From Dehalococcoidia bacterium (GTDB lineage Bacteria; Chloroflexota; Dehalococcoidia; UBA2979): 64,000 nucleotides of DNA. The position numbers and the translations under genes were made by a program. Positions 7,704-31,967 of this stretch are shown piece by piece. Every line of letters starts with the position of its first letter. The first letter of the stretch is position 1. The DNA lies in contig OZ244720.1 of NCBI GenBank assembly GCA_965219085.1, positions 864,001-928,000 on the forward strand. The letters run 5' to 3'. Under the pieces are notes generated by a model. It was given only the letters and a program-made list of their open reading frames with translations. It was not told where the DNA came from and ran no database searches.

Positions 7704-10844
<3,141 letters not shown>

Positions 10845-11688: not shown

Positions 11689-11714
11689 GACCCGCTGTTC
11701 ACGCCTTTGACTAG

Positions 11715-13007
11715 CAGGGTGCTGAAAAAGGCGCGGCCATCTGGCAGGATAGCGAAGGCGGCGGGGGCGTAGCCTGGGAGGCAGCCCCGTGCGAGGCGAC
11801 GCCGAGCGCCAGACCAACATGTTGCTGGCGGTGACGCCGGACTCCTTCATCCCGGACGACCACCCGATCCGACGCATCAAGCCGATCGTCGATGCAGCGC
11901 TGCAGCGGCTCTCGCCGCTCTTCGGCACGATGTACGCAACGAGCGGGCGGCCCTCGATCCCGCCCGAGCACCTGCTCAAGGCGAGCCTGCTGATCGCGCT
12001 CTACTCGATCCGCAGCGAGCGCCAGTTCTGCGAGCGGCTGCGCTACGACCTGCTCTTCAAGTGGTTCTTGGACCTCAACATCTCAGACGCGCCGTTCGAC
12101 GCCTCGAGCTTCTCGAAGAACCGCGAGCGCCTGCTCGCAGCCGATGTCGCGCGCGCCTTCTTCGCCGAGGTGGTGGCCGAGGCAAAGCGCCGCCGGCTGC
12201 TCTCCGCCGAGCACTTCACCGTGGACGGGACGCTGCTGGAGGCCTGGGCCTCGCTCAAGAGCTACCGCCCGCGCGACGGGCAGGAGCCACCCCCGGGCGG
12301 ACGCAACCCGGACGTGGACTTCCGCGGGCGGCGGCGCAGCCGCGATACGCATAGCTCCGGCACCGACCCGCAGGCGCAGCTGTACACAAAGGGAGCGGGG
12401 CAGACGGCGAAACTGAGCTACATGGGCCATCTGCTCACCGAGAACCGTCACGGCCTGGTGCTGGACGTGGAGTTGACCGAGGCGAACGGGTACGCCGAGC
12501 GCGAGGCCGCGGTCACGATGCTGGAGCGCAGCGTGAGCGGCTGCGGGACGCTGGGCGCCGACCGCGGCTACGACACGCGCGACTTCGTGGCGGAACTGCG
12601 CGCGCGCGGCGTGACGCCGCACGTGGCGCAAAACGACCGCGGCCGCCGCAGCGCCGTGGACGGGCGCACCACGCGGCATCGCGGCTACAGGCAGAGTCAG
12701 CAGCGGCGCAAGATCGTGGAGCAGGTCTTCGGCTGGATGAAGACCGTGGGCGGCGGGCGCAAGCTGCGTTTCGTGGGCCGCGAGCGCAACCGCGGCTGGC
12801 TGGAGCTCACCGCCGCCGCCTACAACCTCGTGCGCATGGCCAGGCTCGAACTCGCCCCTGCGTAGGCGCAGTGCGCCCTCCGGCCGGTCCGGGAGCCCTC
12901 AGAGGCCCCCGGGGGCAGGTCAGGAGGCCACCATCACGAAGCCGGAGGCGGCTTCAAGCCGCCTCTCGCCACTCCGAGACCCCGGAAGGCGCTTCTTCAG
13001 CACCCTG
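11715..13007 (+). mobile_element. IS5-family element, copy 1 (1293 bp)
   Basis: Terminal IR CAGGGTGCTGAA. CTAG duplicated at 11711-11714 and 13008-13011. Inserted in the last codons of the PIN gene. Confidence 0.95.
11789..12865 (+). CDS. IS5-family DDE transposase
   Basis: GRPSIPPEHLLKA (InsH N-terminal domain), FTVDGT, LGADRGYD, RKIVEQVFGWMK. Confidence 0.95.
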   Translation: MRGDAERQTNMLLAVTPDSFIPDDHPIRRIKPIVDAALQRLSPLFGTMYATSGRPSIPPEHLLKASLLIALYSIRSERQFCERLRYDLLFKWFLDLNISDAPFDASSFSKNRERLLAADVARAFFAEVVAEAKRRRLLSAEHFTVDGTLLEAWASLKSYRPRDGQEPPPGGRNPDVDFRGRRRSRDTHSSGTDPQAQLYTKGAGQTAKLSYMGHLLTENRHGLVLDVELTEANGYAEREAAVTMLERSVSGCGTLGADRGYDTRDFVAELRARGVTPHVAQNDRGRRSAVDGRTTRHRGYRQSQQRRKIVEQVFGWMKTVGGGRKLRFVGRERNRGWLELTAAAYNLVRMARLELAPA

Positions 13008-14298
13008 CTAGATCCCAAGCGCGATCAGCCACGCTGACGCTCGCGTTACGGACTTCGATACGGACTGGTAGCACGGCCGAGATTGGCTCAGACAGATTCT
13101 CGGCGTGGATGACACACTCAAGCGCCCCTTCGATCTCGGCGTCGGTATAACTGACGAATATCTCGCTCCTGAAATACTCCTCGTCAGCGCCGTGGCGCCA
13201 CTGTGTGCATTCCAGGGCGTAGGAGTCCACCGGATCGTGAGGCAATCCGCCCTTGCAGTAGAAGCCATTCGGATCCCGTCGCTCACCTCCAATCTGCTGC
13301 GATCCCAAGAGTCCGCCCGCGTACAAGGAAGGCATGTCGAGCAGGCTGGGTGGCGACGGAAGGTACGTGCGCTCCCTTGAATCGGCGTAAAAGCTCCATT
13401 CGGAACGATGCGGCCGGATCCTGAAGTCACCCATCGCGGAAATGGCTACGAGCACGTCCTTACCCGGACGCGTGCCTGTGTTCGTCGCCACGATCTCGAA
13501 GGCAACGCCCTCCGACTCCACCTGCATCTCATCGTGAATGCTCCGGAGGATTTGCTCACATTCTGCCAACCAGCTCTGGTAAGCATCTGGTCGCATCAAC
13601 CACCCCACAGGTGGTGCGCGCCTCCTTAGTTCTCGCATGAGGCCAGTCAGTTCGTCGTCCGGAAGCGGGACGGGTACATGGTGAACCGCCCTGAGTTCTC
13701 GGATCTTCTGCCCCTCCTGATCCACGAAAGCCACATCGAAGTCCGGCCCAGCCTGTAGCCTCGCGATCTGCGTCCGGAGTTTCGCGTTCTCCCTCTCTGC
13801 CTGGCTCGGCTCCGGATCGCGTAGCCATGTTTCCGGGATTGAGATGAAGGGCAGACTGAGCGCTTGCGCCGTCATCAGGGCACCCGAGTCATCTGTCAGT
13901 AGCCGCGCGTCGTGCCGCGGGTTCTGTTTGAGATACTCGTACAGATGACCAACTATCGCGTCGTCGGCTTGGGTATAGTCGAGATTGCCCTCTAGCTCGG
14001 GGGCCGGCTTTCCGGGACCGCCCAAAAGAAGCTTGACTTGAGGATTGGCTTCCCGAACCAATACGTGGTTCTGTCCCGAGTCAATGATGCTCCGGAACAG
14101 TTGGTTGGCCTTTCGCGCTCGACGCCCGACGCGGTCGTTACCGCGGTTCTTCTGCTGGTCGATCTCGCGTTGGACCGGGCGGCTCACGATCAAGTGCACT
14201 TCCTGAAATTCTGCCCACGAAGACCAATCGAGCTCATCCAATGCCCGGCACTGGATGAAAAGGTTCGTGTCGGGAAACAGGTGGACGATTTGCTTCAC
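12997..14298 (-). CDS. PIN-domain protein with uncharacterised C-terminal region; last 8 residues replaced by the IS5 insertion
   Basis: HLFPDTNLFI, VQREIDQQK, ADDAIV, LLTDDSG (PIN acidic residues). GTG at 14298 is 4 nt after the hsdS stop. With the IS removed it ends ...WDLVKGVNSGS* at 11685. Confidence 0.8.
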   Translation of the reverse strand: MKQIVHLFPDTNLFIQCRALDELDWSSWAEFQEVHLIVSRPVQREIDQQKNRGNDRVGRRARKANQLFRSIIDSGQNHVLVREANPQVKLLLGGPGKPAPELEGNLDYTQADDAIVGHLYEYLKQNPRHDARLLTDDSGALMTAQALSLPFISIPETWLRDPEPSQAERENAKLRTQIARLQAGPDFDVAFVDQEGQKIRELRAVHHVPVPLPDDELTGLMRELRRRAPPVGWLMRPDAYQSWLAECEQILRSIHDEMQVESEGVAFEIVATNTGTRPGKDVLVAISAMGDFRIRPHRSEWSFYADSRERTYLPSPPSLLDMPSLYAGGLLGSQQIGGERRDPNGFYCKGGLPHDPVDSYALECTQWRHGADEEYFRSEIFVSYTDAEIEGALECVIHAENLSEPISAVLPVRIEVRNASVSVADRAWDLAGC

Positions 14299-14302
14299 CG
14301 TC

Positions 14303-15571
14303 TCAAACTTCCGTGCTGCCGCGGGCGAGCTGTAATTCACCCGACACGAGGCGCGGTAGCAGTGCGTCCCGAAGATCAGCGATCGATCTTGAGAGTTCCG
14401 AGTTCGAATCGGACGAGGCGTAGAGAGGGTCGGTCAGGTCAGCGAAGCGGATGAGGACAGAGTCAGGCGGGACCGCGACGGCCTGCGCCTTGAGATCGCG
14501 TTGGGTGATGAGCGGCTGGGTTGAACCGCGGTTCAAGTTCGGCAAGTCTACCTCCCGAACGACCCCAACGAGCCAGCTGAACTCGGCGGGGCGGCTGGGA
14601 ATGATTACTAGAGTGTTGTCTGAAGGCCACACCGGGAAGCTCACGCGGTGCACGATCCCGAGAGTTCCGACACGCCCGGTGATTATGACCGGAGAAGAAT
14701 AGAGCGCCTCGTCTGCGTACGCCATCGCGCCGGCGCCCCCGAATATTGGGACGTTTGCAGTGGCCGAGGGCTGCGCGTGACGCTCGATCGGTCGTTTCCC
14801 GCTTGAGATGTCGGTTAGCTCCCCCAGCGCCTTCACCTCCCACCCTGCCGGTACCTCCCCCAGCTCCGACGCCTCGAACGATGCGGGGAACAGCGCGTCG
14901 AGGTCGGGCGGGAGGCCCGAGGGCCGGCCCTCGGCCTTCGCGCGCACCGGGTCGAAGTCCACGAACCACGACCGGAACAGCGCCCGCGCCATCTCCTCGA
15001 GCGTCTCGCTCATGCGCCGGTTCAGCTCGATCCGGTCGTCGAGCGCGCCGAGCACGCGCGCGATCGCGCGCTGCTCGTCTAGGGGCGGGATGCGGACCGG
15101 TATTGAAGCGAGGATTGACTGATTCAGAAGTGGCTGACCGGAGCCACTCCTGTGGTCGTTCAAGTTGAGGGCACGAAGGAGATAGAACAGAAACTTCGTA
15201 TTGTTCGTCGCGACCGCTCTCGAGCGAATGGCATTATCTGTTACCCAGCAAGACTCCTCGCTGTAGTGCAATGACCCGCAATAGCTTCCCACTCTTCCGA
15301 TAATGATGGTGCCTTCTGGAGAGTTTGCCTTGCTGGTAAACCCCATTACCCCATTGGCTCCGTACACGGGGACGGGCATCTGATCAGAGCGATCTGGACT
15401 TGTCGTGCCATTCGAGAAAGACATCACATCTCCGAGTGTCATCGCCTGCCACTTCCTCGCTGACGACTGACCTCCCTCAGGGACGAGTACTTGCAGCAGC
15501 CGACCAGCGTGAGCACGCTGACCGTCATCGTCTACCATTCGGCCGGTCCGACCAGATCCTAGATCTGTCAC
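14303..15571 (-). CDS. hsdS: Type I R-M specificity subunit
   Basis: Two TRDs (GRVGSYCG...GSGQPLLNQ and GRVGTLG...GSTQPLITQ), [10 protein letters not shown]...[11 protein letters not shown] conserved region, [18 protein letters not shown] overlap with the hsdM stop. Confidence 0.93.
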
Positions 15572-17124
15572 GCGCCGTACCCCAACGCCTCCAGGTTCGC
15601 CTCGATCTCCGCGTCGAGGCGCTCGGCCTCGGCGCGCTGCTCGCGCCACTGCGCGGCGAGGCGCGTCATCTTCTCCTCAAACGGCTCGCCGTCGTCCTCC
15701 TGCGGCGCTGCGCCGACGTAGCGGCCCGGCGTGAGCACGTGCCCGTGCCGTCGCACCTCCTCGAGGTCCGCCGACTTGCAGAAGCCGGGTACGTCGACGT
15801 ACTCGCCGGCGCCCTCCTCGCCGCGCCACGCGTGGTAGGTGTCGGCGATGAGCGCGATGTCCTCGGTGGTCAGTTCGCGGTGCGTGCGGTCGGTCATGCG
15901 GCCCATCGCGCGGGCGTCGATGAACAGCACCTCGCCGCGGCGGTCGCGGAACCGGCCGTTGCGGCGGTCGCGCGCCAGGAACCACAGGCACGCCGGGATT
16001 TGCGTCGAGTAGAAGAGCTGCCCGGGCATCGCGACCATGCAGTCGACCATGCCCTCCTCGACGAGCCGCTCGCGGATCTCGCCCTCGCCGCGCTGGTTCG
16101 AGGACATCGAGCCGTTGGCGAGCACGAAGCCGGCGATGCCCGCCGGTGCGAGGTGGTGGACGAAGTGCTGCACCCACGCGAAGTTCGCGTTGCCCGCGGG
16201 CGGGACGCCGTACTGCCAGCGCTGGTCGTCGGCGAGGCGTTCGCCGCCCCAGTCCGAGACGTTGAACGGCGGATTCGCGAGGATGTAGTCGGCCCGGAGG
16301 TCCGGGTGGCGGTCGTTGTGGAAGCTGTCACCGTGGGCGATCTGGCCCTCGATGCCCCGGATCGCGAGGTTCATCTTCGCGAGTCGCCAGGTGGTGTGGT
16401 TGGACTCCTGGCCCCAGATCGAGATGGGCGCGCTCGCCTTCCCGCCGTTGCCGTTCCCGGTCGCATGGGCTCGAATGAACTCGAGGGACTGCACGAACAT
16501 CCCCGAAGAGCCGCAGCAGGGATCGTAGACGCGGCCCTCGTACGGTTCGAGCATCTCGACCAGCAGCCGCACCACGCTGCGCGGTGTGTAGAACTCGCCG
16601 CCCCGCTTGCCTTCTGACTCCGCGAAGCGGGAGAGGAAGTACTCGTACACGCGCCCCAGCACGTCCCGCGATCGGGCGTCCTCGTCGCCCACGACGATGT
16701 TGCTGACCTGGTCGATCAACTGGCCCAGGCGCTGCTTGTCGAGCGCTGGGCGGGCATAGTCCTTCGGCAGGACGTCGCGCAGCGCAGGGTTCGCTTCCTC
16801 GATGGCGGTCATTGCTTCGTCGACCGTCTGCCCGATGGTCGACTGGCGGGCCTGCGCCTGCAGCACGGACCAGCGCGCCTCCTTCGGCACCCACAGGATG
16901 TTGCGAGCGAGGTACTCGTCGGGATGATCGGGGTCCGCGCCCTGGTCGCGCTCAGCCTCGAGCTGCGCGCGGGTCTCCTCGAAGGCGTCGGAGACGTACT
17001 TGAGGAAGATGAGCCCGAGCACGACGTGCTTGTACTCACCGGCGTCCATGCTGCCGCGCAGCGCGTCGGCCATCTCCCAGAGTTCGGCCTCGTAGCCCGT
17101 GGTGACGCTGTTGTCGCTGGTCAT
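15568..17124 (-). CDS. hsdM: Type I R-M N6-adenine methyltransferase
   Basis: [50 protein letters not shown]. Start at ATG 17124. Confidence 0.95.
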
Positions 17125-17210
17125 GGCGTGTTCACCTCGGGGCCGGACCGAGCAGGTCTGCAACGGCATCGAGGCCGACGGATGTCGCCTCGAGCCGCTG
17201 GACGGACAGT

Positions 17211-18287
17211 CTACCGGTCCGGGCCCGGACCTCCGTCCCACTGCCTGAATTCCTCGGGCAGGATCGTCAGAAGCGCGTCCGGTTCCATCCCATACACGTC
17301 GTGGGTGCGCTCGAGCTGGTCGAGCACGCGGATCAAGTGGCGGAGACCGCCACGGCTGAAGTTGAAGCCACGCTTCTGCTGCGCACCATGCGTGTACAGG
17401 CGCAGGATCAACGGCACGATTCCGACCGAGTTGAAGACGCGGATGGCGCCAAACGACCTCTGTGCTATATCGCCCCACCACGTCAGGTCCTTGTCGAGGA
17501 GGAACCCCGCGCGCTCCCCCTGCTGTTCGTAGAGACGCCACGACCCCCAGAGGTAGTGCCGGAACCGCAGCTCGTACGAACGGGAGGCGCCATCCCGGCG
17601 ATCGACGACGAACGTCTCGTCCAGCGGCGACAACTGGACGGCGCCGTTCTCCCGGCGCGCCGTCTCCGCGAAGTAGAACAAGCCCAACCACGACCAGACA
17701 CCGGCGTGGTCGGCCACCAGGTGCGCGACCGGTTTCAGCAGCGGCTCGAAGTACTCCGCGACTTCTCGACGCGCCCGGAACGGGCGTCGCTCCACCTCGA
17801 TCTCACCGACGAACCGGGCCGCGTAGCGCTCGTCGTAGAGCAGATCGGGCGGCGGTTCCATCGCGCCGGTGGGGTCGTCGCGGAGGTCCGTGAGGAACTC
17901 GCGTGCACGCTCGATGCCGTCGGGCGTGAGCCGGCGCAGCCGCTGGCGCTCGACCCGGCGGGGCTGGCAAAGACCCGTCCGGGCGGTTTCGGCCAGCTCG
18001 TCGATCTCCCGCGACAACGACTCCCGGGGCTGTGACGGCGTGGAGGGGGTCTCGACGCCGAGGAGCTGGGCGGTGAGCACGTCGATGGCCTGGTTGATCC
18101 GGGCCAGCATGGTCGCCCGGCGCACCTTGTGGCCCGGCACACCTGCTGCCTCGACGAAGGCGCCCCATGCAGGTGTCCCGGGCTCTGCATAGTCCCGGAG
18201 GTTCACCCGCCGGGGTGCGCCTTCCTCCCCCAGTGCGTCGCGGATCTCGCGGAGTCTCGACAGCGCTTCGGGGCCGTGGTCGTTCAT
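17211..18287 (-). CDS. Hypothetical protein (gene C of the GHKL module)
   Basis: 358-aa ORF with globular composition ([26 protein letters not shown]). ATGA overlap with gene B. Confidence 0.8.
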
Positions 18288-19063
18288 GAGCTGCGGCCGT
18301 GCAGCGCGTTGTTGTAGGCATCGGCGGCGTCAAGACGAACGTCTGCGAACGCGGCCACCACGCGGTCGACCCAGCGGTTCGCGTCGGCGAGGTCGGTGTC
18401 CGTCGTCCCTTGATGCTGCAAATGAGGAGGCTCCGCGTCGGGGAGCAGTGCGCGGGCGATCTCGAACCATCCTCCCCATGGCCCTTCATCGTCGTCGGGG
18501 TCCTGGCGTTCTACGAGCACGACATGCGCGAGGATCGTTCGCAGCACATCCGGCATCACGAGCGAACGGAACTCCTCGTTGCTGCGAACGATCTCGCTGA
18601 TGCCTTCCACGGACGGGTTGATCAGCAGTTCGGGCCGGTCCATCCCGTCGCCGAAGTCGACGCGCCAGACCTCGTCACCCAGTTCTTCGCTCTCACGCAC
18701 CGGGAGAAGGGACCGGCGCGGTAACACCGGGCGAATATTCGGCGCGTGGCCGAGCAGCAGTCCCGAGCCGTCGCCGGCCACGACGATCACCCGGAACTGC
18801 GCCGAAGCGGGCACATCGGTCAGCTGCCGCTCCTCGTCACTGGGCGGCTCAAGGGCACCGGCCGTGCCGTAGTCCCACCGCTGGACTGCGTTACTGCGCC
18901 ACGCCTCCACGCGCACGCGGGCGCCGTCCGGGAAGCCATAGCTCGACAAGTCGAGGCTCGCGTCGAAGATCGCTGGGTCGTCGCCCTCGGGAGCGCGCAC
19001 GGACACCTGTGCGTGGTTCCGCGTGATCCGCCTCCGCCCCGTGCTATTGAGCCGACTCCTCAT
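18284..19063 (-). CDS. Hypothetical protein (gene B of the GHKL module), 259 aa
   Basis: MRSRLNSTGRRRITR...FRSLVMPDVLRTIL. ATG at 19063 overlaps the ATPase stop (ATGA). Confidence 0.8.
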   Translation of the reverse strand: MRSRLNSTGRRRITRNHAQVSVRAPEGDDPAIFDASLDLSSYGFPDGARVRVEAWRSNAVQRWDYGTAGALEPPSDEERQLTDVPASAQFRVIVVAGDGSGLLLGHAPNIRPVLPRRSLLPVRESEELGDEVWRVDFGDGMDRPELLINPSVEGISEIVRSNEEFRSLVMPDVLRTILAHVVLVERQDPDDDEGPWGGWFEIARALLPDAEPPHLQHQGTTDTDLADANRWVDRVVAAFADVRLDAADAYNNALHGRSS

Positions 19064-21039
19064 GAGGAACCGTCCCCATCCGTCGCGTCGTCGGATGACT
19101 CGACACGTTGCATGTCGACGATCACATCTCGATCGTCGAGGCCGGTCACGTCGAGACGCACGGCGTCGGCGAGGACCCGGAACCTGATCATGTTGTCCTC
19201 CGTGCGCTCGACCTCTGCGGAGCGCGAGAGAACCTCGACTTGCCCCGGTTCGATCGAGAAGTCCGGGACACCCCGTCTCGCGCCCTGATCGAACAGGCTG
19301 AACGCGTTGCCGCGGACGACGTCGTAGGCGAATCGCAGCGTCCACTCCGAGCCGACGAGGTCGGCTCCTCGTGGTGTGGTCACGGAGAACCCGGACTCCG
19401 TTCGGCTCGCATTCAGGACGGGCGGCGGGGGCGGCGGAGGTGGCGGTGGGGGAGGGCCGCCGCCCCGGCGGCCGCTCGGAGTGCGGCTGCGGATGTCCGC
19501 TGGATCGGCCGGGAACAGGTCCGCGAGGGCATCGAATTGCTGCTCGTCGGGTCGCTCGGCGAGGCGCTGCAGCAGCAGTACTGCCGCTCGCCTCACTTCC
19601 TGGACGCGGCTGTACCCGCCGACCCAGTGATCCTTGAGACGTTGCTCGTGCGGATCCCACGAGATGTGCGCCGGCCCCTCGGAGTCTCTGAGCAGGTGCG
19701 CCAGCTCCGACTCTCCGTCGACCACTACGAGAACTCGGGCCTTGTAGCGCGTGATGTGATCCATTCTGGGGATGCTGAGGTGACCGCGAACGAAGTAGTC
19801 GTGTCCGCTCGATAGGCCGTCGGCTCGCTCGATGTAGAGCCGGAAGCTGGTAGCCGTACGCTGCGACGTACTCTTCCTCTGGACCCGCGTCTCGAGCGTG
19901 AACGCCAAGCGTTCGCCGCGCTCGTAGCGTTCGCGCAGGTCTTCCAAGTCGAGCAGGTCCAGGGTGTCGTTCGTCCTTGTTGGCACTTGCAGTGTGACGT
20001 GCGCCCCGTCGTCCAGCTGAATTGCCCACTGTGCCAACCGGATGACTCCCGCGAGCGAGTCACGTGACTCCTCGTCGTGAGCGTCCTCACCGGGGGGCAT
20101 CGGGATGTCGACGACTTCGCGAGCGATCGTGTCGGCGCTGATGGTTCGCTGTCGCTCACCGGGCGCGCGGATCTCGACTGTGAGGTCGCCACGCACGATC
20201 GGCAAGAAGTATTGCGTGATGACCGCCCGCGCGATCGAACCGAGTGTGAGTTCTTGCTTCGGGTAGGGCACGATCACCGACAGGCCCGGATGGTCCAGCC
20301 TATCGAGCCCGAAATCCATGAGCGTTTGCAGGACGAAGTCGGGGTCGTCCCGGGAATTGATCGGGAGCGGGAGCCACTCGTCGTCTCGTGTATCCGTCTC
20401 AGCGGCCAACTGGCCATAGGGCGGGTGCTTCGTCCCGTTGACGGTGTGCGTCCTCAGTACCGCCATCCCCATGAGTAGCGTGTGATCTTCGCCTGCACGC
20501 CGGGTCGCGCCGAGGTACGCGTTGACCATCGAGGCATCCGGGAAGACCCACTTTCCCAACCCCCACGACCCGCCGGCGTCCTCGCCCTTGGGTGAGATCC
20601 CGATGCTCCGAAAGAAGCCCCAGAAGTGGTTGTCGGGCTCGTTCGCGTCGTTCGCCTCGATGTCGCCAGCAAGGCCGGTCGTGCCGAAGTCCTCGACCGT
20701 GACCCATGGCATCGGCCCGGCCAGGGAAGCCAAAGCCTCGTCGATGCTTTCACGCTCTGCAGCGTCGGCGCTCGGATCGGCCTGGATGTGAGGGGCGAGC
20801 TCGCCGAGATAGCGGGCAGCGGCATCTACACTGAGGGCGTCGGTCTCGCCGCTGAAGGTGAACCGCACCCTCACGGGTTCATTCCCTTGTCGGGCGTCCA
20901 GCGAATTCTGAAGCGACTCTCGGACAACGCGCTCAGAGAGATCTGAAGCGGAGGTGAAAAACTCACCCTGTACAGGATCCTGGTTGATCTCCGACGGCAT
21001 CATGCGCCGGAATCGCCATCGCGGTTGTCCCGAATCCAC
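19060..21039 (-). CDS. GHKL (HATPase/MORC-like) ATPase (gene A of the module)
   Basis: Bergerat motifs VVRESLQNSLDA, EDFGTTG, GGSWGLGK, PGLSVIV. Poly-Pro linker before the C-terminal domain. GGGAGG RBS before GTG 21039. Confidence 0.85.
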   Translation of the reverse strand: MDSGQPRWRFRRMMPSEINQDPVQGEFFTSASDLSERVVRESLQNSLDARQGNEPVRVRFTFSGETDALSVDAAARYLGELAPHIQADPSADAAERESIDEALASLAGPMPWVTVEDFGTTGLAGDIEANDANEPDNHFWGFFRSIGISPKGEDAGGSWGLGKWVFPDASMVNAYLGATRRAGEDHTLLMGMAVLRTHTVNGTKHPPYGQLAAETDTRDDEWLPLPINSRDDPDFVLQTLMDFGLDRLDHPGLSVIVPYPKQELTLGSIARAVITQYFLPIVRGDLTVEIRAPGERQRTISADTIAREVVDIPMPPGEDAHDEESRDSLAGVIRLAQWAIQLDDGAHVTLQVPTRTNDTLDLLDLEDLRERYERGERLAFTLETRVQRKSTSQRTATSFRLYIERADGLSSGHDYFVRGHLSIPRMDHITRYKARVLVVVDGESELAHLLRDSEGPAHISWDPHEQRLKDHWVGGYSRVQEVRRAAVLLLQRLAERPDEQQFDALADLFPADPADIRSRTPSGRRGGGPPPPPPPPPPPPVLNASRTESGFSVTTPRGADLVGSEWTLRFAYDVVRGNAFSLFDQGARRGVPDFSIEPGQVEVLSRSAEVERTEDNMIRFRVLADAVRLDVTGLDDRDVIVDMQRVESSDDATDGDGSS

Positions 21040-21170
21040 TGTTGACCCTCCCCATCCGTCGTCAGTGGGCAACCCTATGCCGTATCACGTACGGAGATCA
21101 ATGTCGCGAGCCTCGGAATAATGCGCGTAGTCGGCGGGCTGCGCCCGCGTCAGTTCATCGTGGTTCGGCG

Positions 21171-22993
21171 CTACCTGACTCCCGCCAATGCACCCTCGCC
21201 GGCCAGCGCCAGCACTTCGGTCTCCGCGTACCGCTTGAACGCCTCGGCGCTCGTGAAGTGGCGGAACCCGTGGTCGTTCGCGATCTGTAGTGTCTCCTGC
21301 TCCTCGCCGAGCAGCAGCGCCACCGGCTCGCTGTAGCCCTGTTGCAGGCCGTTCGGCCAGGCAAGGTCGAGGATGGCGAGCGGGTCGCCGGTATCCGGGT
21401 GTGCAAGTTCGTGCTCGATCTGGCCCTCGGGGAGTCCCTGGCTGCGTACCCAGTCGTTGATGGCTCGGAGGGCAGCCTCCTCCTCGGCGTCTTCGATACC
21501 GCCGGGGATCGTGGCCGGCTCGCTGGCCTTTCCTGCAGCCGCTGCTACCGGCTCCCCCGACTCGATGGCCGGGGCGCCGTGCAAGAGGTCGTCCAGGAGT
21601 GCGTTTGCGGCCTCGGCGAGTAGTCGCTGCCGCTCCTCGAGGAATCGCGGGTAGTTCTCCGTCTCCCAGAGCTCCCGGTCCATCGGTATCCATTGCGACG
21701 CGAGCGCGCCGGGGTGACGCTCCTCGATCTCCGGGAAGTACTCGGCTGGTGGGCGGTCGCTGATCTGGAGATTGGTGTCCTTGGTCAGGAAGCAGAAGTT
21801 AGCGACGGCGTTGACCTGCGACCTCTGGAAGCCCGCGCGGTACAGCAGCGCCTTCGGGAAGATGTGATGCACCTCGAGGGCGTTCATGCGGCCCAGCAGC
21901 GTGTGCTTGAGCGCGAGCCCCGTGCCCCAGTCCTGTGCTTCGCCGACGCGCGTGAGCGCGTACAGGACGGGGTAGAAGCGGGCCCCGAGGCTCCAGCCCC
22001 GGAAGTGCGCTGGCTCGACCCGGAGGCTCCCGTGCCAGAGCCTCAGTTGCTCGATCAGCTGCTCGATGCCGCGGTCGACGTCCTCGATCGCCTCGAAGTC
22101 CTGGTCGAGCACGGTCTCGGTCGAACCGGAGAAGCGGCCCCACATCGCACTCTGGAAATACCAGTAGAGCAGCCGGTCTTGCTCGGCGGCGCCATGTAGG
22201 TGGCCGCCACGACGGTCGATGTACCGAGACATCACGGGCAGTGCGTAGCGCCCGAAGAGCACGCGGTCGTGGTCGAGCCCAAACCGGCCGGCGATGAGGT
22301 TCAGGACGTAGTCGACGCGCTGTTCCGCGCGGGCGAGGCCCTCCCGGACGGCGTCGGTGGACGAGTCGTGGAGGTGCGCGAACCGCGCCTCGCCCGTCAC
22401 GATCGCGTTCACGTTGCGGAGCAGCCAGTCGAGGTTGAAGTCGTACCCACTCTCGCGCCAGCGCTCGAGGATCGACTGCATGCGCTCGCGCCCTTCGGGC
22501 CACGAGCCGCAGATCTTCGCGAGGGCGAGGTCACCCTGCGAGAGCTTCGTGCCGCCGCTGTTGACCCGATTGAAGATGTCCACGACCACTTCGATGGTCT
22601 TGTCGGCACCCGTCACCTCCTCGATGTGAAGGTCGATCTCGCGGATCCCGATGATGTTGTTGAGGCACCCGATGAACTCGCCCTGCATGTCGGCGAACTG
22701 GGGCAGCTGACCGAAGCGGGTGATGTGCTCTCCGAGCCCCGTGTGCCCCGCCTGCATCAGCTCGGAGACATTGATCCAGAGTGGATCGTCCCGCATGAGC
22801 AGCTGCTGGTAGAAACGGAACTCCTCGCTCCCGATGTGAAAGTAGAGGTCGGTGAAGGCTCGCGCGTTGCCGTCAAAGAAGTCCGGCGGCGCGCCCCGGA
22901 TGATGCCGTAGAGCGAAGTGATGCGCTGTTGCCCGTCGAGCAACAGCCGCACGACACCCGGCGCGAGCTCCTGCTCGCCCCGATGCCTTGCAC
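21171..22993 (-). pseudogene. GmrSD-like DUF262 + HNH nuclease, 5'-truncated
   Basis: LLLDGQQR, IFNRVNSGGTKL, LEVHHIFPK...ANFCFL...TN. An in-frame TGA at 23019-23021 leaves no room for the N-terminal QRxYxW motif of DUF262. Confidence 0.75.
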
Positions 22994-23685: not shown

Positions 23686-25650
23686 TCATCCGGCTCCTCC
23701 GCGAAGTCCAGGGCTGGTCAGATCCCGGTGCGAAACGGGGGGTGTGCCGGGGACGCAGCTCCAAGGCTCGCGCTGCATGAGGGTACCGTCGGCGTCGGTG
23801 CCGGCCCAGCTGGCGCTGGCCGGCTCGATCTCGCGGCAATGCTCGATCTTCGCTGTCCTGACGCACTTCCCGTCGAGGACGTAGCTCGTGGCGGACGCGA
23901 CCTTGTGCATCGTTTCGTCCAACGCGATGCGATCGGTCGCGTACATGCCCATCCGCATTTCGTCATCCATCTCGTCGTCGAACGGCCGGCCAAACGCGGC
24001 TTCCGCGTCGGTAACGTCATATAGCAGCACGTGCTCCACGGTGTGGCCCTCGACGATCACGGCGACCCAGCGAACCTGCACGCCGCCGATCTCCACCAAC
24101 CGTTCGGTGACCGATGCCACCTTGCGCACGTCCCTCGGCTCGGGTTCGTAGACGAGGAGCCCGAGCACAAGCTCGTACAGGTCGTCCGCCATCGACGTGA
24201 TCTCATCAGCCATCGTGAGTTGCTCGCGCCACGCGGCCGGAATGCCGTCGACCCCGTAGTACGCCCCGGCGATCTGACCGTAGATCGCGGCAGTCGTATC
24301 GGCGTCGCCGCCGAGGTTCGCCGCGAGCAGGGCGCCTTCGCGGAAGTTGTCCGAGTGGTGGAACGCCCAGAGCGCCGCCTCGATCGACCGAACGACGTAA
24401 CCGGTGCCCCTGATCTCCGGCGGGTTGCGATTCTTGAAGGAGCCGTTGGCGATGCGGGCAATCGCCTCCACCAGCGGATGGCTCTCCCATAACCCCTCGA
24501 CAGGGCAGTAGCCAGCGGAGAGGAGCGTCTCCTTGCCGACGTCACCAAGCGCGCCGACGAGCAGGCCGGCGAAGTAGCGGCAGGCGTCGACCGCCTCCCG
24601 CGCCCCGTGCGTCGTCCGGGAACTATCTGCCGCCTTGGTGATGGCATCGGCCGGGTGGCCCCAGTAGTACATCGGGACCGGCGCAAGCCGCATGAGGGAG
24701 CCGTTCCCCGCGGTCTGCGAGTCCGTGGAACCGGCGTACGGGTCGGCGTCCCGCTCGAAGCGAGACAGCGCATCCCTCACCGTGGTCCCGATGTCGAAGC
24801 ACCGGCCTGTGGAGGACAGGTAGCCCTCCCGCCACCACCGCACGTAACGCTCCATCTGGTCGGTGGGGTCGAAGCCCTTCTGTTCGATCAGGCTTGTCGC
24901 GAGGCACAGTGCCATCGACGTATCGTCGGTCCACTGGCCGGGCTTCAGTCCGAACGGGCCGCCGCCGACCATGTCGTCGATCGCTTCGAACGTGCCCGGC
25001 GGCTGGAACTCGAGCGTGGTGCCGAGGGCGTCGCCCGCAGCCAGACCGAGCAGGCAGCCCCGGAATCGATCCAGTGTGGTGATCTCACTCATTGGGCTCT
25101 CCTCCGGTGAAGGCTCCGTCCATTCGCGGACGTAGCGGAACTGCTCGGATGTCTCGGGCGACTGCGGCTTGCGGCGGGCCTTCGCGACTCCCTGCCACCA
25201 CTCCGCGAGCTGTCTCAGCGCCTCGTCGCCCGTCCGCCCGTGCCGTACCAGCCAGCAGCCGACGACGGTGCCGGTCCGTCCGACCCCGCCCCAGCAGTGG
25301 AGGTAGACGGTCCCTTCTTCGTCCAGAGCGTCGTCGATGGCGTCGAGGATGTCGGCCATCTCCTGGGGGCTGCCGGGCACGCCCACGTCGACGATCGAAT
25401 GCCGCTCATGCGCGACGTCCATGCCAAGACCGTCGGCTTCCGCTTCGGCGATGTCGGTGTATGGCTCCAGCCCTTCGCTGGGCTCGGTCAGATCGATGAA
25501 GTGGTCGATGCCCGCGCTCAGCAGCGTGCGGAGCCTGGCTGCGGCCTCGTTGCGGTGCTTGTCGCCCGGGTACTCGCCGGCGGCGAAGCGGCCGGGGACG
25601 ACCCAGTAGCTGTTGGGGATCGGGCGATCAGAGCTGCCTGCGGGGTTCAA
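23686..25650 (-). CDS. Fusion of dual-specificity/tyrosine phosphatase + ADP-ribosylglycohydrolase (DraG/ARH) + unknown C-terminal domain
   Basis: HCWGGVGRTG (CX5R). GDALG, WTDDTSM, GNGSLMR, GGDADTTAAI. GGAGGT RBS before TTG 25650. Confidence 0.9.
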   Translation of the reverse strand: MNPAGSSDRPIPNSYWVVPGRFAAGEYPGDKHRNEAAARLRTLLSAGIDHFIDLTEPSEGLEPYTDIAEAEADGLGMDVAHERHSIVDVGVPGSPQEMADILDAIDDALDEEGTVYLHCWGGVGRTGTVVGCWLVRHGRTGDEALRQLAEWWQGVAKARRKPQSPETSEQFRYVREWTEPSPEESPMSEITTLDRFRGCLLGLAAGDALGTTLEFQPPGTFEAIDDMVGGGPFGLKPGQWTDDTSMALCLATSLIEQKGFDPTDQMERYVRWWREGYLSSTGRCFDIGTTVRDALSRFERDADPYAGSTDSQTAGNGSLMRLAPVPMYYWGHPADAITKAADSSRTTHGAREAVDACRYFAGLLVGALGDVGKETLLSAGYCPVEGLWESHPLVEAIARIANGSFKNRNPPEIRGTGYVVRSIEAALWAFHHSDNFREGALLAANLGGDADTTAAIYGQIAGAYYGVDGIPAAWREQLTMADEITSMADDLYELVLGLLVYEPEPRDVRKVASVTERLVEIGGVQVRWVAVIVEGHTVEHVLLYDVTDAEAAFGRPFDDEMDDEMRMGMYATDRIALDETMHKVASATSYVLDGKCVRTAKIEHCREIEPASASWAGTDADGTLMQREPWSCVPGTPPVSHRDLTSPGLRGGAG

Positions 25651-25776
25651 CTGGGCGACCTCCGGTTTGTTTCGACGGGCTCACGGCCATTCGTTCGGGT
25701 GATGTCGGGTGGGAGTGTAGGTTCTGCAATGAACGGGCCGTGCCGCTCGACGCGAGCGCTGAGCCGGTGCTTACGG

Positions 25777-26748
25777 CTAGAACTCGCCCTCCCTGACCGG
25801 TCGGGCTGGGAGGGCGACGACCACCGGCGTCACCGGCTCGTTGCCGGGGACGACCCCATCCCCCACCTTGAGGCTCCTCGCTGCCACGCTGTCCATGCCC
25901 GCGAGCTTCGCGGCGCCGGTCAGGGCTTCCACGTCGCCGCCGTAGTACTCGAACCACGGTAGCCCGGCCGCCGAGTAGTCCTGCGCGCTCACCGGTTCGT
26001 GGGGAGGCTCGCCGCCGGTCACGCCGAGGAACTGGACGCTGTTCAGGATGTGTACGAAGCAGCGGGACCGCACCGACGTCTCCCACGCATCGAAACCGTA
26101 GGGGTCTTCGTAGACCTCCTGGCGCATCAGGCCGCCCGGAGCGAGACTCATCTCGCCGTCCGGGACGGGAGCAAGAGCCAGGACTTCCTCCTCGACGCGG
26201 CGTTCCAGCGCGAGGGCCTCGTAGCTCGACACCTTCATCGGATGGACGGCGATCTGCAGGCCGCCGTGCTGTGCCTCGCCGGTGAGCTGCTCCTCGGCGG
26301 AGTACCCCGCGCCCAGGGGCATCGCCACGAATTGCCGCACCAGTCCTTGCTCGACGCAGAAGCCGTCCAGCCACGGCTGCTCGGGGACCACGAGGTAGTC
26401 CTGCGGCGAATCGGAGAGCTCGTTCGTCCACGGGTCCCCCGTCAGTGCGTTGATCTTCCCGGCCGCCACCTTCACGGCCATCGGGTAGCTCCCGGTGAAG
26501 CTGAGCCACATCGCCTCGGCCTGGTACATCGGGAGAAACACCCCGCCGCGCGCCGCCCACTCCGCGGGCAGTCGCTCCAGGTAGTCGTCGACGTGGCTGA
26601 GCGGGAACGCCCCCGGGCCCTGCGGCAGGGGATAGTCGCGGTTGTCGTCGGGGATGCGCAGTGTGCGCTGGAACTCGACCTCCAGCACGGCGTCGTCATG
26701 GACCTCGGGGAACCGGAATATCAGACGGTTGTGCTGGTGCTCGATCAC
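25777..26748 (-). CDS. Conserved uncharacterised protein (FQRTLRIPDD / QPWLDG / QFVAMPLG family)
   Basis: Distinctive conserved motifs. AAGGAG RBS before GTG 26748. Co-directional with the phosphatase-ARH gene. Confidence 0.8.
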   Translation of the reverse strand: MIEHQHNRLIFRFPEVHDDAVLEVEFQRTLRIPDDNRDYPLPQGPGAFPLSHVDDYLERLPAEWAARGGVFLPMYQAEAMWLSFTGSYPMAVKVAAGKINALTGDPWTNELSDSPQDYLVVPEQPWLDGFCVEQGLVRQFVAMPLGAGYSAEEQLTGEAQHGGLQIAVHPMKVSSYEALALERRVEEEVLALAPVPDGEMSLAPGGLMRQEVYEDPYGFDAWETSVRSRCFVHILNSVQFLGVTGGEPPHEPVSAQDYSAAGLPWFEYYGGDVEALTGAAKLAGMDSVAARSLKVGDGVVPGNEPVTPVVVALPARPVREGEF

Positions 26749-26769
26749 AGATGTCTCCTTCTCGTGGTG

Positions 26770-27758
26770 GTTGCTTCCTGCCAGCCGGAGGGCGTCTCGA
26801 CCCGCCGCGTCGACGACCTCGTGCGCTCGCTCGGCTGTGAGGGCATCTCGAAAAGAGCCAGGTCTCGAGGATCTGCGCAGAGCTCGACACGGTCGTCGCG
26901 AGCTTCCTCGGCCGGCCGCTCGACGGCGGTCCCTACCCCTACCTGTGGCTCGACGCGCTCACGCAGCGGGTGCGCGAGGAGGGCCGCATCGCTCAGGTCA
27001 GCCCTGCGGGGTATCCCCGCGTACGCGGGAAGGGTGGTCGCCACCGCGGTCAACGCCGAGGGCAAGCGCGAGGTGCTGGGCATCGACGTCGGCACCAGCG
27101 AGGACGGGGCGTTCTGGCTAGCGTTTCTGCGCGGGCTCGTGGCACGAGGGCTCTCCGGTGTGGAGTTGGTGACCTCCGACGCCCTCAGGGCCTCAAGGAG
27201 GCGATCGCGACTGTCTTCGGCGGCGCCTCGTGGCAGCGCTGCCGCACGCACTTCATGAGGAATCTGCTGACGCGCGTGCCGAAGAGCGCCGAGGCGCTGG
27301 TGGCGACGACGGTGCGCACGATCTATCAGCAGCCGTCGGCGGAGGCGGTGCACGCCCAGCACGCCCGGGTGGTGGAGCAGCTGGACGCGCGCTTCCCCGA
27401 TGCCGCGGTCATGCTCGCCGACGCGGCCGCGGAGATACTGGCGTTCACGGCCTTCCCGGTCGCGCACTGGAAACAGGTCTGGTCGAACAACCCGCTGGAG
27501 CGGCTCAACAAGGAAATCCGCCGGCGCACCAACGTGGTCGGCATCTTCCCCAACCGCGCCGCGGTGGTCCGGCTGGTCGGCGCCGTGCTCGCCGAGCAGC
27601 ACGACGAGTGGGCGGTCGCGAGGCGCTACATGACGATGGTGACGCTGCTGCCCCCGCCGGGGCTCACGGCCGCGTCAGGCGAGGAGGTGCTGCTGCAGGC
27701 TGCCAGCTAGCAATTGATAAGGATGGTGCACTGTGACACCACCTTGCGGGACGTGACC
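26770..27758 (+). mobile_element. IS256-family remnant (5'-truncated, frameshifted mutator transposase)
   Basis: EGVSTRRVDDLV, YPYLWLDA, GKREVLG, WQRCRTHF, SNNPLERLNKEIRRR in different frames. IS256-like right end ...ACACCACCTTGCGGGACGTGACC. Confidence 0.85.
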
Positions 27759-27895
27759 GGCGCATCCTCGCCCGCGCCCACCAGATGGCATGAGGGCCGG
27801 TCTCCTCCTCAAGGGGGGATACTCGCCCCCGAAACAGCGGCCTCGATGGGCCAGAACGGCTCTCTGCGGAGCCTTGACGAGGTAGGAGACCGGCC

Positions 27896-28984
27896 ATGCA
27901 GCAGGATATCGCAACGACGCGGAGCATCGAGGGCAGGGATGGGCCTGCGTTCACCGTCGGCCTCGACGTAGGAGACCGCTACATCCACGTCTGCGTCCTC
28001 GGCAGCGGCGGCGAGGTGGTGCGCGAGCGGCGCGTCCGCACCACGGCGGCGGCGCTCGGCGGCGCACTGGAGGACCTTCCGCCGGCGCGGGTCGTGCTCG
28101 AGGCGGGGCCGCGCTCGCCGTGGCTGAGCCGCGTCGTGGCGGATCTCGGCCACGAGGCGGTCGTCGCCAACCCTCGCCAGGTCGCGCTGATCGCCCGCAG
28201 CCAGCGCAAGACCGACCGCCTCGACGCCGCATGGCTGGCGCGGCTGGGGCGCTTCGACCCGGAGTTGCTCGCCCCGATCCGCCACCGCAGCGAGCAGAGC
28301 CAGCATGACCTCGCCGTGGTGCGCGCCCGCGACGCGCTGGTGCGCTCGCGCACGCTGCTCATCAACCACATGCGCGGGGCCGTCAAGGCCTGCGGCGCCG
28401 CGCTGCCGTCGTGCACGGCCGAGGCCTTCCACCGCAAGGCGGCGGAGCACATCCCCGATGGGCTGCGCCCGGCGCTGCTGCCGCTGGTGGAGGCGATCGG
28501 CGAGCTGACCGCGCGTATCGCGGCGGCCGGGCGGGAGGTCGAGGCGTTGTGCGAGGCCCACCCCGAGACCGCGGCGCTGCGCCAGGTCACCGGCGTGGGG
28601 CCGATCACCGCGCTCACGTTCGTGCTGACGATCGAGAACCCGGGGCGCTTCCCGAAGAACCGGGAGGTGGGGGCCTACCTCGGGCTCGTACCGCGGCAGC
28701 GCGAGTCTGGAGAGCGCGCGCCACAGCTCCGGATCAGCAAGAGCGGCGACGCGGGCTTGCGGCGGCTGCTGGTGCAGGCCGCGCACTACATCCTCGGTGC
28801 CTTCGGACCCGATACCGACCTGCGCCGCTGGGGTGAGCGCTACGCGGGAACAGGGGCGGGCAACGCGAAGAAGCGCGCGGTTGTGGCTGTCGCACGACGG
28901 CTGGCGGTGCTGCTGCTCGCGCTGTGGAAGACAGGGGAGTTCTACGAGCCGCTGCGCCACGCCGTGGCCCGCGAGGCCGCGTAG
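27896..28984 (+). CDS. IS110-family DEDD recombinase/transposase (intact)
   Basis: VGLDVG, VVLEAG, KTDRLDA, GVGPITA, YLGLVPRQRESG, ISKSGD..LRRLL. AGGAG RBS. Confidence 0.95.
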   Translation: MQQDIATTRSIEGRDGPAFTVGLDVGDRYIHVCVLGSGGEVVRERRVRTTAAALGGALEDLPPARVVLEAGPRSPWLSRVVADLGHEAVVANPRQVALIARSQRKTDRLDAAWLARLGRFDPELLAPIRHRSEQSQHDLAVVRARDALVRSRTLLINHMRGAVKACGAALPSCTAEAFHRKAAEHIPDGLRPALLPLVEAIGELTARIAAAGREVEALCEAHPETAALRQVTGVGPITALTFVLTIENPGRFPKNREVGAYLGLVPRQRESGERAPQLRISKSGDAGLRRLLVQAAHYILGAFGPDTDLRRWGERYAGTGAGNAKKRAVVAVARRLAVLLLALWKTGEFYEPLRHAVAREAA

Positions 28985-29059
28985 CGGGGAGGCGCCGCCG
29001 CCGCCGGCGCAGCAGACCCGGAGATCAGGAAGGAAGACCCGATCGCGAACGAAGCCACG

Positions 29060-29212
29060 CACGTGATGCCGAACACGGGCGACTGCGGCCGAGCTGCTGT
29101 CCCATCGAGGACGTCCACCAGCTGGCAGCGCCCCCTGGAAGCAGGATGTGCCTTCATGCACCGGGCCCGATGCGCGGCCCACAGACGAGTGCGGATAGAA
29201 GCTCGGCACAGG
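29060..29212 (+). ncRNA. Predicted bridge/seek RNA of the IS1111-type element
   Basis: Two internal loops closed by stems. Loop 1 strands CGAGCTGCTG (29090-99) and CCACCAGC (29115-22) match both strands of the target. Loop 2 strands TGCCTTC (29149-55) and ATAGAAG (29195-201) match the donor junction. Boundaries approximate. Confidence 0.8.
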
Positions 29213-29243
29213 CTCCTCTGTTCGGAGATAACGCGCAGGCGCG

Positions 29244-29397
29244 AGGTGGATGAGGCGCCACGCCGCCCGGGCAGGGAGGCCGCCACGTCGGCCTTGCAGA
29301 TCAGACCGTCCCTCATAGAAGGTGGATGAGGCGCCACGCCGCCCGGGCAGGGAGGCCGCCACGTCGGCCTTGCAGATCAGACCGTCCCTCATAGAAG
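29244..29397 (+). repeat. Perfect 76-bp tandem duplication of the IS right end
   Basis: AGGTGGATGAGGCGCC...CCGTCCCTCATAGA starts at 29244 and again at 29320. Confidence 0.95.
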
Positions 29398-30631
29398 CAG
29401 CTCGTCCGGGACCGCACCCGCCAGACCAAATCTGTACGTGGGTGATGACTGGGCCGAGGAGCACCACGATGTCCACCTCATGAACGAAGTGGGCGGACAG
29501 CTTGCTGCCAGGCAGTTGCCGGAGGGGGTTCGGGGCGTTACCGCGCTGCACGAACTGCTCGCGCAGCATGCATCAGAACCGGGCGAGGTCGTCATCGGTA
29601 TCGAGACCGACCGTGGGCCGTGGGTGTCCTCATTGCTCGCCGCCGGCTACCGCGTCTACGCAGTCAACCCGCGCTCAGTGGCCCGCTATCGCGACCGTCA
29701 CCACGTCGGCGGCGCGAAGTCCGATGCCGGCGACACGAAGCTCTTGGCCGACCTGGTACGCACGGACCGTCACAACCACCGCGAGGTCGCCGGCGACACC
29801 GACGAGGCTGCGGCTGTGCGCATCCTCGCACGCGCCCACCAGCAGTTTATTTGGGACCGCACGCGACAAACCAATCGGCTCCGCAACGGGCTCCGAGAGT
29901 ATTTCCCGGCGGCCCTGGAGGCCTTCCACGACCTCGCTCACGGCGACGCGGTGGGCGTGCTGGCAACGGCCCCGGACCCGCGCGCGGCGGCGCGGCTGAC
30001 CATGCCGCAGATCCGGGCCGCCCTCCGTCGAGGTGGCCGCCAGCGGTACATCGACCGCCGCGCCACCGAGATCCGCGACGCGCTGCGATCCCCGCAGCTC
30101 GAGGTGGCGCCCGTGGTGAGCAGTGCGTTCGCCGCGACCACCAGCGCGGTGGTAGGCCAGATCGGCCAGATCAATCATCGGATTAAGGAACTCGAGGCTG
30201 AACTGGCGAGCCATTTTGAGCAGCACCCGGACGCCACGATCTACCGCTCCATGCCCGGACTCGGTGTCGTGCTCGGCGCCCGGGTGCTCGGCGAGTTCGG
30301 GGATGACCCCGAACGCTACGAGTCGGCGAAGTCCGCAGGAACTACGCCGGCACCTCGCCGCTCACCGTAGCATCGGGGCGCAAGCGCACCGTGAAGGCCC
30401 GCTTCATCCGCAACCGGCGGCTCTCCGACGCCGCCAACCACTGGGCGATGTGCTCGCTGCGCGCGAGCCCGGCTTGCCGCGAGTTCTACGACCCGCGGCG
30501 CGCCGCCGGCGACCTGCACCACCAGGCGCTGCGTGCCCTCGGCAACCGCCTCGTCGGCTACCTCCATGGCTGCCTCAGGAATTGCACCCTCTACGACGAG
30601 GCCATCGCCTGGGCCCACCGTTCGGCTCTAG

Positions 30632-31924: not shown

Positions 31925-31967
31925 CTAGAACAACCCGCCGCTTGACGGCTTAGGACCATGGGATGTC

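Follow-up and report, generated by a model that had tools for sequence, protein, structure and literature searches.

What kind of machine is encoded by three overlapping genes that stand beside a type I restriction-modification (R-M) system? The genes, referred to here as A, B and C, lie on the minus strand of a 64,000-nucleotide (nt) stretch of DNA from a Dehalococcoidia bacterium (assembly GCA_965219085.1, contig OZ244720.1, positions 864,001 to 928,000), which we call the window. A preliminary description had proposed the trio as an undescribed defence system built around a GHKL ATPase. Our analysis indicates that it is probably a stand-alone, defence-type ATPase machine related to PDC-M33, a candidate system catalogued in PADLOC, with a specific mechanism that is much less certain. 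The genes and their junctions are arranged as follows.

19060–21039, minus strand: gene A, 659 amino acids (aa), from the open reading frame (ORF) and its translation.
18284–19063, minus strand: gene B, 259 aa, without a known domain.
17211–18287, minus strand: gene C, 358 aa; a helical hairpin, a linker and a conserved, mostly helical core.
19060–19063, minus strand: ATGA overlap of the A stop and the B start; the junction reads tcATGAgg.
18284–18287, minus strand: ATGA overlap of the B stop and the C start; the junction reads tcATGAac.

All three ORFs are intact and occupy the coordinates given in the preliminary description, and the junction sequences bear out the two ATGA overlaps that it had reported: at both, the TGA stop overlaps the ATG start of the next gene. 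Gene A begins with a GTG at 21039, a few bases downstream of a GGAGG, in agreement with the N-termini of 30 aligned homologues. The G+C content of the region is 65–70%. A scan of 16900–21400 for promoters and terminators picked out nothing promoter-like and a single terminator-like site, which is on the opposite strand and does not exceed the yield of shuffled sequences; none of the 21 listed sequencing-run holders was an RNA holder.

To what extent do the three genes belong together? Searches with C patterns only, taking one genome per species, yielded 46 related loci. C is directly preceded by A and B on its own strand in 45 of these, so that the synteny earlier proposed as a check is conserved across genomes; the exception, L039, holds C fragments only, and A is broken in L010. 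With start codons picked by a heuristic, an overlap of 4 or 1 nt is seen between A and B in 42 of 45 related pairs and between B and C in 24 of 43. The recurrence of 4- or 1-nt overlaps argues that those of the trio are not due to chance. A, B and C are one conserved, translationally coupled unit. At L039 (4277–9067), the C fragments sit at a conserved site flanked by CoA-transferase and enoyl-CoA hydratase genes and are preceded, in place of A and B, by a 932-aa protein without a Pfam family; this cassette is decayed or replaced.

The preliminary description had also envisaged a stoichiometric complex. Complex prediction for A and B gave a score of 0.47, compared with 0.00 for the best of three controls, with runs agreeing in at least 55% of contacts and a partner pLDDT (predicted score in the local distance difference test) of at least 78. 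The mark reached by this pair was also reached by 116 of 157 solved complexes and by 2 of 215 mismatched pairs; only 18 of the 157 solved complexes reached it with a score of 0.60 or less, as did both mismatches that passed. A contact between A and B is thus weakly supported by modelling; the rest of the proposed complex we infer.

What is protein A? Its domains and motifs map to the window as listed.

19525–21000, minus strand: residues 14–505 of A, a Bergerat-fold ATPase domain followed by a transducer (S5-like) domain.
20893–20922, minus strand: GHKL motif I, RESLQNSLDA, residues 40–49 (E41, N45, D48), from the alignment.
20671–20697, minus strand: GHKL motif II, VEDFGTTGL, residues 115–123 (D117, G122); D117, T120 and G122 are invariant.
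20548–20571, minus strand: GHKL motif III/ATP-lid glycines, GSWGLGKW, residues 157–164; G157, S158, W159, G160, G162 and W164 are invariant.
19666–19806, minus strand: the family-specific motifs GHDYFVRG and LLRDxEGPAH of the transducer region, with invariant residues.
19420–19455, minus strand: a run of 12 prolines, residues 529–540, forming a flexible linker; pLDDT is below 50 at residues 515–536.
19096–19419, minus strand: the C-terminal beta-rich domain, about residues 541–648; strands in the model at residues 543–645.

A is a GHL-type GHKL ATPase whose matches spread over several subfamilies. The assignment to the GHKL class, made in the preliminary description, is borne out by the fold and the invariant catalytic motifs, and both the motifs and the poly-Pro-linked C-terminal domain that it noted are present. 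Motifs I (ExxxNxxD), II (DxGxG) and III (GxxGxG) follow each other in the expected order, and all 31 aligned family members share E41, N45, D48, D117, G122, G157, G160 and G162. In the AlphaFold model of A (pLDDT 80.5, predicted template modelling score 0.70), motif III falls within a low-confidence loop (residues 144–162), as expected of an ATP lid. With this model, Foldseek matched 175 PDB chains at E ≤ 0.001, the best being topoisomerase VI-B (Top6B; 2.9e-9), and VIA-align places residues 14 to ~505 on the ATPase-plus-transducer modules of GHL proteins, with scores of 17.7 for Hsp90 (298 aligned, root mean square deviation 5.0), 15.8 for MORC3, 15.1 for SMCHD1, 15.0 for Top6B, 14.2 for MutL and 13.7 for GyrB. 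Like A, the proteins Hsp90/HtpG, MORC, SMCHD1, MutL, GyrB/ParE and topoisomerase VI-B are GHL-type GHKL ATPases with a transducer domain. The transducer region of A contains twelve invariant residues (G412, H413, Y415, R418, G419, L450, R451, D452, E454, P456, H458 and W461). The Pro linker varies in length and composition among homologues, and the C-terminal domain, which lies outside the fold matches, carries conserved AYD, PDF and RD motifs in the alignment.

Sequence libraries say little about A. Pfam and NCBIfam hold no family for it at E ≤ 1; among its relatives, HATPase_c-type Pfam hits are sub-threshold (1 of 31, at E 0.083, and L064, at E 0.038). Searches of PDB sequences with A alone or with a 31-sequence profile found no relative, and none was found in phage records. 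Its look-alikes in the ESM Atlas are 'hypothetical protein' clusters of 638–666 aa.

Does the trio correspond to a known system? The 145 'PDC' systems of PADLOC are untested candidates, inferred, according to the accessible part of the source, from their embedding in BREX, DISARM, Hma and type I R-M loci (Payne et al. 2024, bioRxiv 10.1101/2024.01.29.577857). PDC-M33 is presumably one of these 145; the main text, as far as it is accessible, does not name M33. The system is represented by the models PDLC04582 (A), PDLC04583 (B) and PDLC04584-7 (C), the last corresponding to Pfam DUF6339. Within the trio, A is the only protein with a PADLOC match, and PDC-M33A is its only match (E 5.3e-15, residues 35–200 against profile positions 31–191 of 627); true PDC-M33A members reach 1e-75 to 1e-100 over ~500 or more positions. 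The lack of a PADLOC hit, which had been put forward as a mark of novelty, thus holds for B and C and fails for A, and because PDC-M33 also shares the gene order and gene sizes, the trio can no longer be called an undescribed system.

A search of 401 genomes of the phylum with the PDC-M33A model recovered three full-length members, which are accompanied by a ~280–295-aa PDC-M33B and by a PDC-M33C that is DUF6339, as seen at two of the loci by hidden Markov model (HMM) and at the third by tblastn. The PDC-M33 loci L060–L062 and the window trio have the same co-directional, contiguous gene order A-B-C. In L060, a C5 cytosine methylase lies directly upstream. L061 (4887–6503, minus strand) and L062 (4718–6400, minus strand) encode a DUF6339 protein fused to an SspD/PAPS-reductase-like domain, and in L061 the fusion is followed by a full GmrSD (Orf5/HEC-06/SspE-like) gene. 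These DUF6339-SspD fusions hint at a cassette family linked to modification of the DNA backbone or bases.

Between the two poles lie trios of the same sizes, some of window type at 22–32% identity (L063, L068, L073, L075) and others with a DUF6339 C (L064, L074, L076). The Chloroflexota genome G071 contains three different GHKL-B-C trios, namely L060, which is PDC-M33 proper with Dcm; L072, which is of window type with two C genes; and L076, where a 324-aa B and a DUF6339 C precede a Dcm-like gene. Using enlarged alignments, hhalign connected the A proteins at 99.8% (E 1.7e-30, 264 columns, N-terminal only), C and the DUF6339-type C at 56% (P 1.1e-4, 166 columns), and the B proteins at 0.9% (P 0.059, 152 columns). 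C aligns co-linearly with DUF6339, including a W-x-W motif and the C-terminal helices.

The two cassettes are alike in consisting of three co-directional, overlapping genes of ~630–720, 250–325 and 250–330 aa, in the homologous GHKL N-terminal module of A, in a C that is possibly homologous at that 56%, and in their location in defence islands and on mobile DNA; both are computational candidates. They differ in that the window B and C miss all PDC-M33 and DUF6339 models, so that PADLOC would not call the system, and in that the window A diverges beyond residue ~300. A Dcm-like methylase, which stands beside L060, L074, L076 and both plasmid trios inspected, and so accompanies several PDC-M33-type cassettes, is absent from the window and from all 46 loci of its branch. 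In addition, C of the window branch often has a movable helical hairpin, and its gene is doubled in tandem at 15 of 46 loci (including L006–L009, L017, L019, L020, L025, L026, L028, L032 and L035), each with a second C-like gene. Judged from these sequence comparisons, the trio is probably a far-diverged, methylase-free relative of the catalogued candidate PDC-M33 and not a categorically new system; the interpretation in the preliminary description is supported in part. Full-text searches for 'PDC-M33' and 'DUF6339' found no paper, and the listings of the GHKL/antiphage literature gave Tiamat, CapK, SLFN-pAgo and others, with none on the trio. The terms MORC, Hsp90 and MutL are absent, by term search, from the accessible part of a paper reappraising phosphorothioates.

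How is the cassette distributed? Carriers belong to four phyla and are mostly Chloroflexota metagenome-assembled genomes (MAGs) of Dehalococcoidia and Tepidiformaceae, joined by five Gemmatimonadota, two Acidobacteriota and one Pseudomonadota. In a FastTree tree of 46 A proteins, the Gemmatimonadota, Acidobacteriota and Pseudomonadota rows nest in the Chloroflexota diversity, and the Pseudomonadota A falls inside a Tepidiformaceae clade with 99% local support. B was detected in 4 of the 18 further genomes in the window's genus, in none of 22 more distant relatives and in 3 of 41 genomes of another trio-carrying family; PDC-M33A-like genes occur in 16 of the 401 genomes of the phylum. With this patchy, cross-phylum distribution, the trio is accessory and horizontally mobile. 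Plasmid relatives of A were found in 6 of 72,556 records, all of DUF6339 type or N-terminal matches. An Arthrobacter plasmid carries a trio of A, B and a 'DUF6339 family protein' beside dcm, vsr, a type II restriction endonuclease and Shedu, and a Halorussus (archaeal) plasmid carries an A-B-DUF6339 trio near dcm.

Flanking genes were Pfam-scanned on 99 of 140 cluster representatives. At 17 of 45 loci, an R-M or defence-type Pfam family lies no more than three called genes away, a raw count given without a background rate. These families include GmrSD, HsdR/M/S, a type ISP enzyme, DUF4011-helicase-MTES_1575, Schlafen/AlbA_2, N4/N6 methylases, HindIII, Uma2 and PDDEXK_4. At conserved chromosomal sites, extra defence genes are inserted beside the trio, namely GmrSD in L034 and L036 and a DUF4011 helicase-nuclease in L038.

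Several results weigh against the reading of the trio as a defence machine akin to PDC-M33. The homology of A to PDC-M33A is limited to the first ~300 residues. The link between C and DUF6339 is moderate at 56%, drops to 8–14% when hhalign is run with smaller alignments, and is made by HMM searches in neither direction: a DUF6339 HMM found nothing at E ≤ 10 in the whole window genome, and a C profile recovered no DUF6339 gene in five genomes holding one. The link between B and PDC-M33B is absent (hhalign P 0.059–0.66; no HMM match at E ≤ 1), and PADLOC matches none of seven sampled representatives of the B family. Together with the missing Dcm of several DUF6339-type trios, these points favour the explanation that the ATPase module of A is all that is common to the two cassettes, B and C being unrelated inventions, the layout convergent and the system independent. 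We consider this unlikely, since gene order, sizes and overlaps are alike in all branches, graded intermediates exist on the window side (L063, L068, L073, L075) as well as on the DUF6339 side (L064, L074, L076), and C remains co-linear with DUF6339 over those 166 columns at P 1.1e-4. On the question of function, it counts against defence that the best VIA-align match of A is the chaperone Hsp90, so that a protein-directed rather than a DNA-directed ATPase may be at hand; that library and PDB sequence searches turned up no effector domain (nuclease, protease, TIR, Sir2 or other) in any of the three proteins; that 28 of 45 loci have housekeeping neighbours only; and that within some clades the trio keeps one chromosomal place, with three recurring settings (CoA-transferase/enoyl-CoA hydratase on one side and a luciferase-like oxygenase on the other; a P-type ATPase and PdxS; SecA). 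Beside PdxS, C is missing from 28 of 30 related loci, and a clean empty site was not shown, the flanks being too weakly conserved. Moreover, the trio and PDC-M33 are both computational candidates only, and the A tree is a FastTree result on MAG-derived sequences with long outgroup branches and possible binning errors. The non-immune alternative, an Hsp90-like chaperone with two co-factors or a MutL/MORC/Top6B-type module for DNA repair, topology or chromatin, nevertheless has a low probability in our estimate: the trio is patchy even within one genus (the 4 of 18 other genomes above), its non-Chloroflexota copies nest inside the Chloroflexota tree, several divergent trios coexist in one genome, additional defence genes stand by it at conserved sites (L034, L036, L038), and related plasmid cassettes adjoin dcm/vsr/restriction endonuclease genes and Shedu.

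The neighbouring hsdM raises another possibility, entertained in the preliminary description, that the trio is an accessory or guard of the type I R-M system, either an ATP-driven modulator of HsdMSR or a back-up that acts upon HsdMSR inhibition. PrrC, embedded in EcoprrI, is the model for a guard of R-M. The trio lies 86 nt upstream of hsdM-hsdS in the window and is co-directional with it, the order A-B-C-hsdM-hsdS...hsdR is repeated in the closest relative, L002, and PDC candidates were first chosen, by the accessible account, for their embedding in R-M, BREX, DISARM and Hma (Payne et al. 2024). Against this, hsdM directly follows the trio in one of the 46 related loci (L002), L003, at 82–91% identity, has no hsdM next to C, a type I gene is lacking within 8 kb in most loci, and the trio is positioned upstream of hsdM, not between hsd genes. 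Because hsdM adjacency is confined to the window and L002, we do not regard the trio as a type I R-M accessory, and the chance that it serves as one appears very small.

What can be said of B and C? B has no match in Pfam, NCBIfam or PADLOC (E ≤ 1) or among PDB sequences, and C no meaningful one in the same searches, so the statement that neither matches a named domain holds for these four resources. A profile search of 1.84 billion cluster representatives (clusters at 50% identity) found 1914 B-family proteins at E ≤ 0.001, of which 1495 remain at ≤ 1e-10 and 643 at ≤ 1e-30; almost all of the 150 matches listed measure ~245–270 aa. In an alignment of 30 homologues, N6, T8, R10, R51, R56, W63, E131 and W133 of B are invariant. 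C is divided into two parts.

18051–18287, minus strand: residues 1–79 of C, a small helical-hairpin domain.
17214–17960, minus strand: residues 110–358 of C, the conserved core, with the motifs RRLT, WSWLG, RHYLW, FLLD, LRLYT and LERTxDVYGM.

In the model of C (pLDDT 84.0), the hairpin and the core are joined by a disordered linker, and the core is strongly conserved and mostly helical, with 36 invariant alignment columns. At least 235 C homologues were collected, none with a Pfam domain. In some of them the hairpin is found at the C-terminus, a domain permutation. No fold match to C was found in the PDB and BFVD, in searches that were dominated by the hairpin and say little on the core; ESM Atlas scores of up to 0.79 were uninformative, and longer fused forms of the C core were not found, which is weak evidence. 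A TOPRIM or PD-(D/E)xK reading of B and C was rejected, the invariant residues showing no convincing motif by eye.

How might such a machine work? A defence function is plausible for the trio and for PDC-M33 itself, and we infer it for both. As a stand-alone, PDC-M33-related machine, the products of the operon would form a three-protein assembly around the GHKL ATPase. The trio would then belong to a large mobile superfamily of cassettes, each with a GHKL ATPase, a ~260-aa protein and a ~250-aa helical protein, in which PDC-M33, with DUF6339 as C, may be one branch and the window trio a far-diverged branch without the cytosine methylase. On binding ATP, GHL ATPases shut an N-terminal dimer gate, a change that the transducer communicates to the C-terminal parts and bound partners. 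By analogy with MutL, MORC, Hsp90 and Top6B, A would dimerise via its N-terminal ATP gate, and its transducer would signal the nucleotide state both to B and to the C-terminal beta domain, tethered by the linker. B may couple to the ATPase, as suggested by the near-universal start/stop overlap of the two genes and their weakly predicted binding. C would serve in target recognition or possess an effector activity of a still unrecognised kind; its invariant Arg, Trp and Tyr residues, oligomerising hairpin and frequent duplication point to a recogniser, and the company of R-M, GmrSD and Dcm in the superfamily, with the DUF6339-SspD fusions, suggests nucleic acid as the probable target. A new fold of B or C, the conserved His/Asp/Glu motifs of A, or DNA entrapment itself might provide the killing or blocking step, and the module would work alone as an accessory anti-mobile-element or anti-phage system.

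A bolder version of this scheme draws on MORC and SMCHD1, which compact or close around DNA in eukaryotic silencing. B and the C core would be new folds, and the trio a self-contained immune machine without nuclease or methylase, whose ATPase closes round or compacts foreign DNA while C reads the target and B couples it to the ATP gate. We regard this version as a decided long shot. If true, a very large prokaryotic family that has not been studied (1914 B clusters) would be a bacterial counterpart to the GHKL-based silencing that defends genomes, and possibly its origin.

In organisms ranging from bacteria to plants and animals, a role of GHKL/GHL ATPases in immunity is coming to light, with MORCs and Tiamat as examples. 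The accessible part of its report describes Tiamat as a single-protein GHL ATPase-nuclease that acts in anti-phage defence, its gene frequently placed close to those for helicases, methyltransferases and nucleases (Yuan et al. 2026, bioRxiv 10.64898/2026.09.30.754977). Its GHL-type ATPase is like that of A and indicates that this class can form the core of an immune system. On the same partial account, Tiamat combines a DUF3684 core with a C-terminal PD-(D/E)xK nuclease in a single long chain, whereas A has neither a DUF3684 nor a nuclease match and is accompanied by two separate small partner proteins. A Tiamat model is presumably included in PADLOC-DB. We know of no study of multi-subunit bacterial GHKL/GHL immune ATPases. 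Members of the family occur in several bacterial phyla, and DUF6339-type relatives extend to archaeal plasmids, all annotated as hypothetical; current defence finders would overlook the window branch because nothing beyond the first 160 residues of A touches a model. Lacking a recognisable effector or methylase, the trio could reveal a new mode of self/non-self discrimination or a new effector fold, and it offers a compact, intact three-gene lead for functional study.

What surrounds the trio in the window? The principal neighbours are the following.

15568–17124, minus strand: hsdM, with its ATG at 17124, 86 nt after the C stop.
14303–15649: hsdS, part of a complete type I system.
7704–10844: hsdR, matched by PADLOC REase_I at E 0.
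21171–22952, minus strand: GmrSD/HEC-05-like ORF upstream of A, without roughly the first 115–190 residues of its relatives.
4193–4777 and 4753–5748, plus strand: KAP NTPase split over two overlapping ORFs.
12997–14340, minus strand: PIN_4-domain protein of 447 aa between hsdS and hsdR, overlapping hsdS by 38 nt.
23686–25650, minus strand: 654-aa fusion of a phosphatase-like domain (Tc-R-P/PTP-SAK, dual-specificity/Tyr) and an ADP-ribosylglycohydrolase (ARH).
11711–13018 and 30621–31928: two inverted, 100% identical insertion sequence (IS) copies of 1308 nt, encoding a DUF772 + DDE_Tnp_1 transposase of 358 aa.

With its complete type I R-M system, GmrSD remnant and split KAP NTPase, the window is a defence island, as the preliminary description had held. 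Its further remarks on context are likewise confirmed: the trio stands between the GmrSD-like gene and hsdM and is co-directional with them, and defence genes in its surroundings are decayed, the KAP gene being divided over two ORFs and the GmrSD-like ORF N-terminally short. The N-terminal piece of the KAP NTPase matches PifA/QatA and the C-terminal piece matches KAP_NTPase; in the window, these decayed defence genes lie near intact ones.

The 447-aa PIN_4 protein has no PADLOC match and is an 'embedded' candidate, of the kind used in the guilt-by-embedding approach of Payne et al., as its accessible part describes it. After the 654-aa fusion gene come several ORFs without a family (25628–29569), possibly another conflict-system module. 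Between the two IS copies lie 17.6 kb with the trio, hsdM and hsdS, the PIN gene, the GmrSD remnant, an IS110 transposase and the gene for the ARH-phosphatase fusion; hsdR lies outside. The final ~22 nt of the PIN ORF are shared with the left copy, and the layout is composite-transposon-like or that of an inversion-prone segment.

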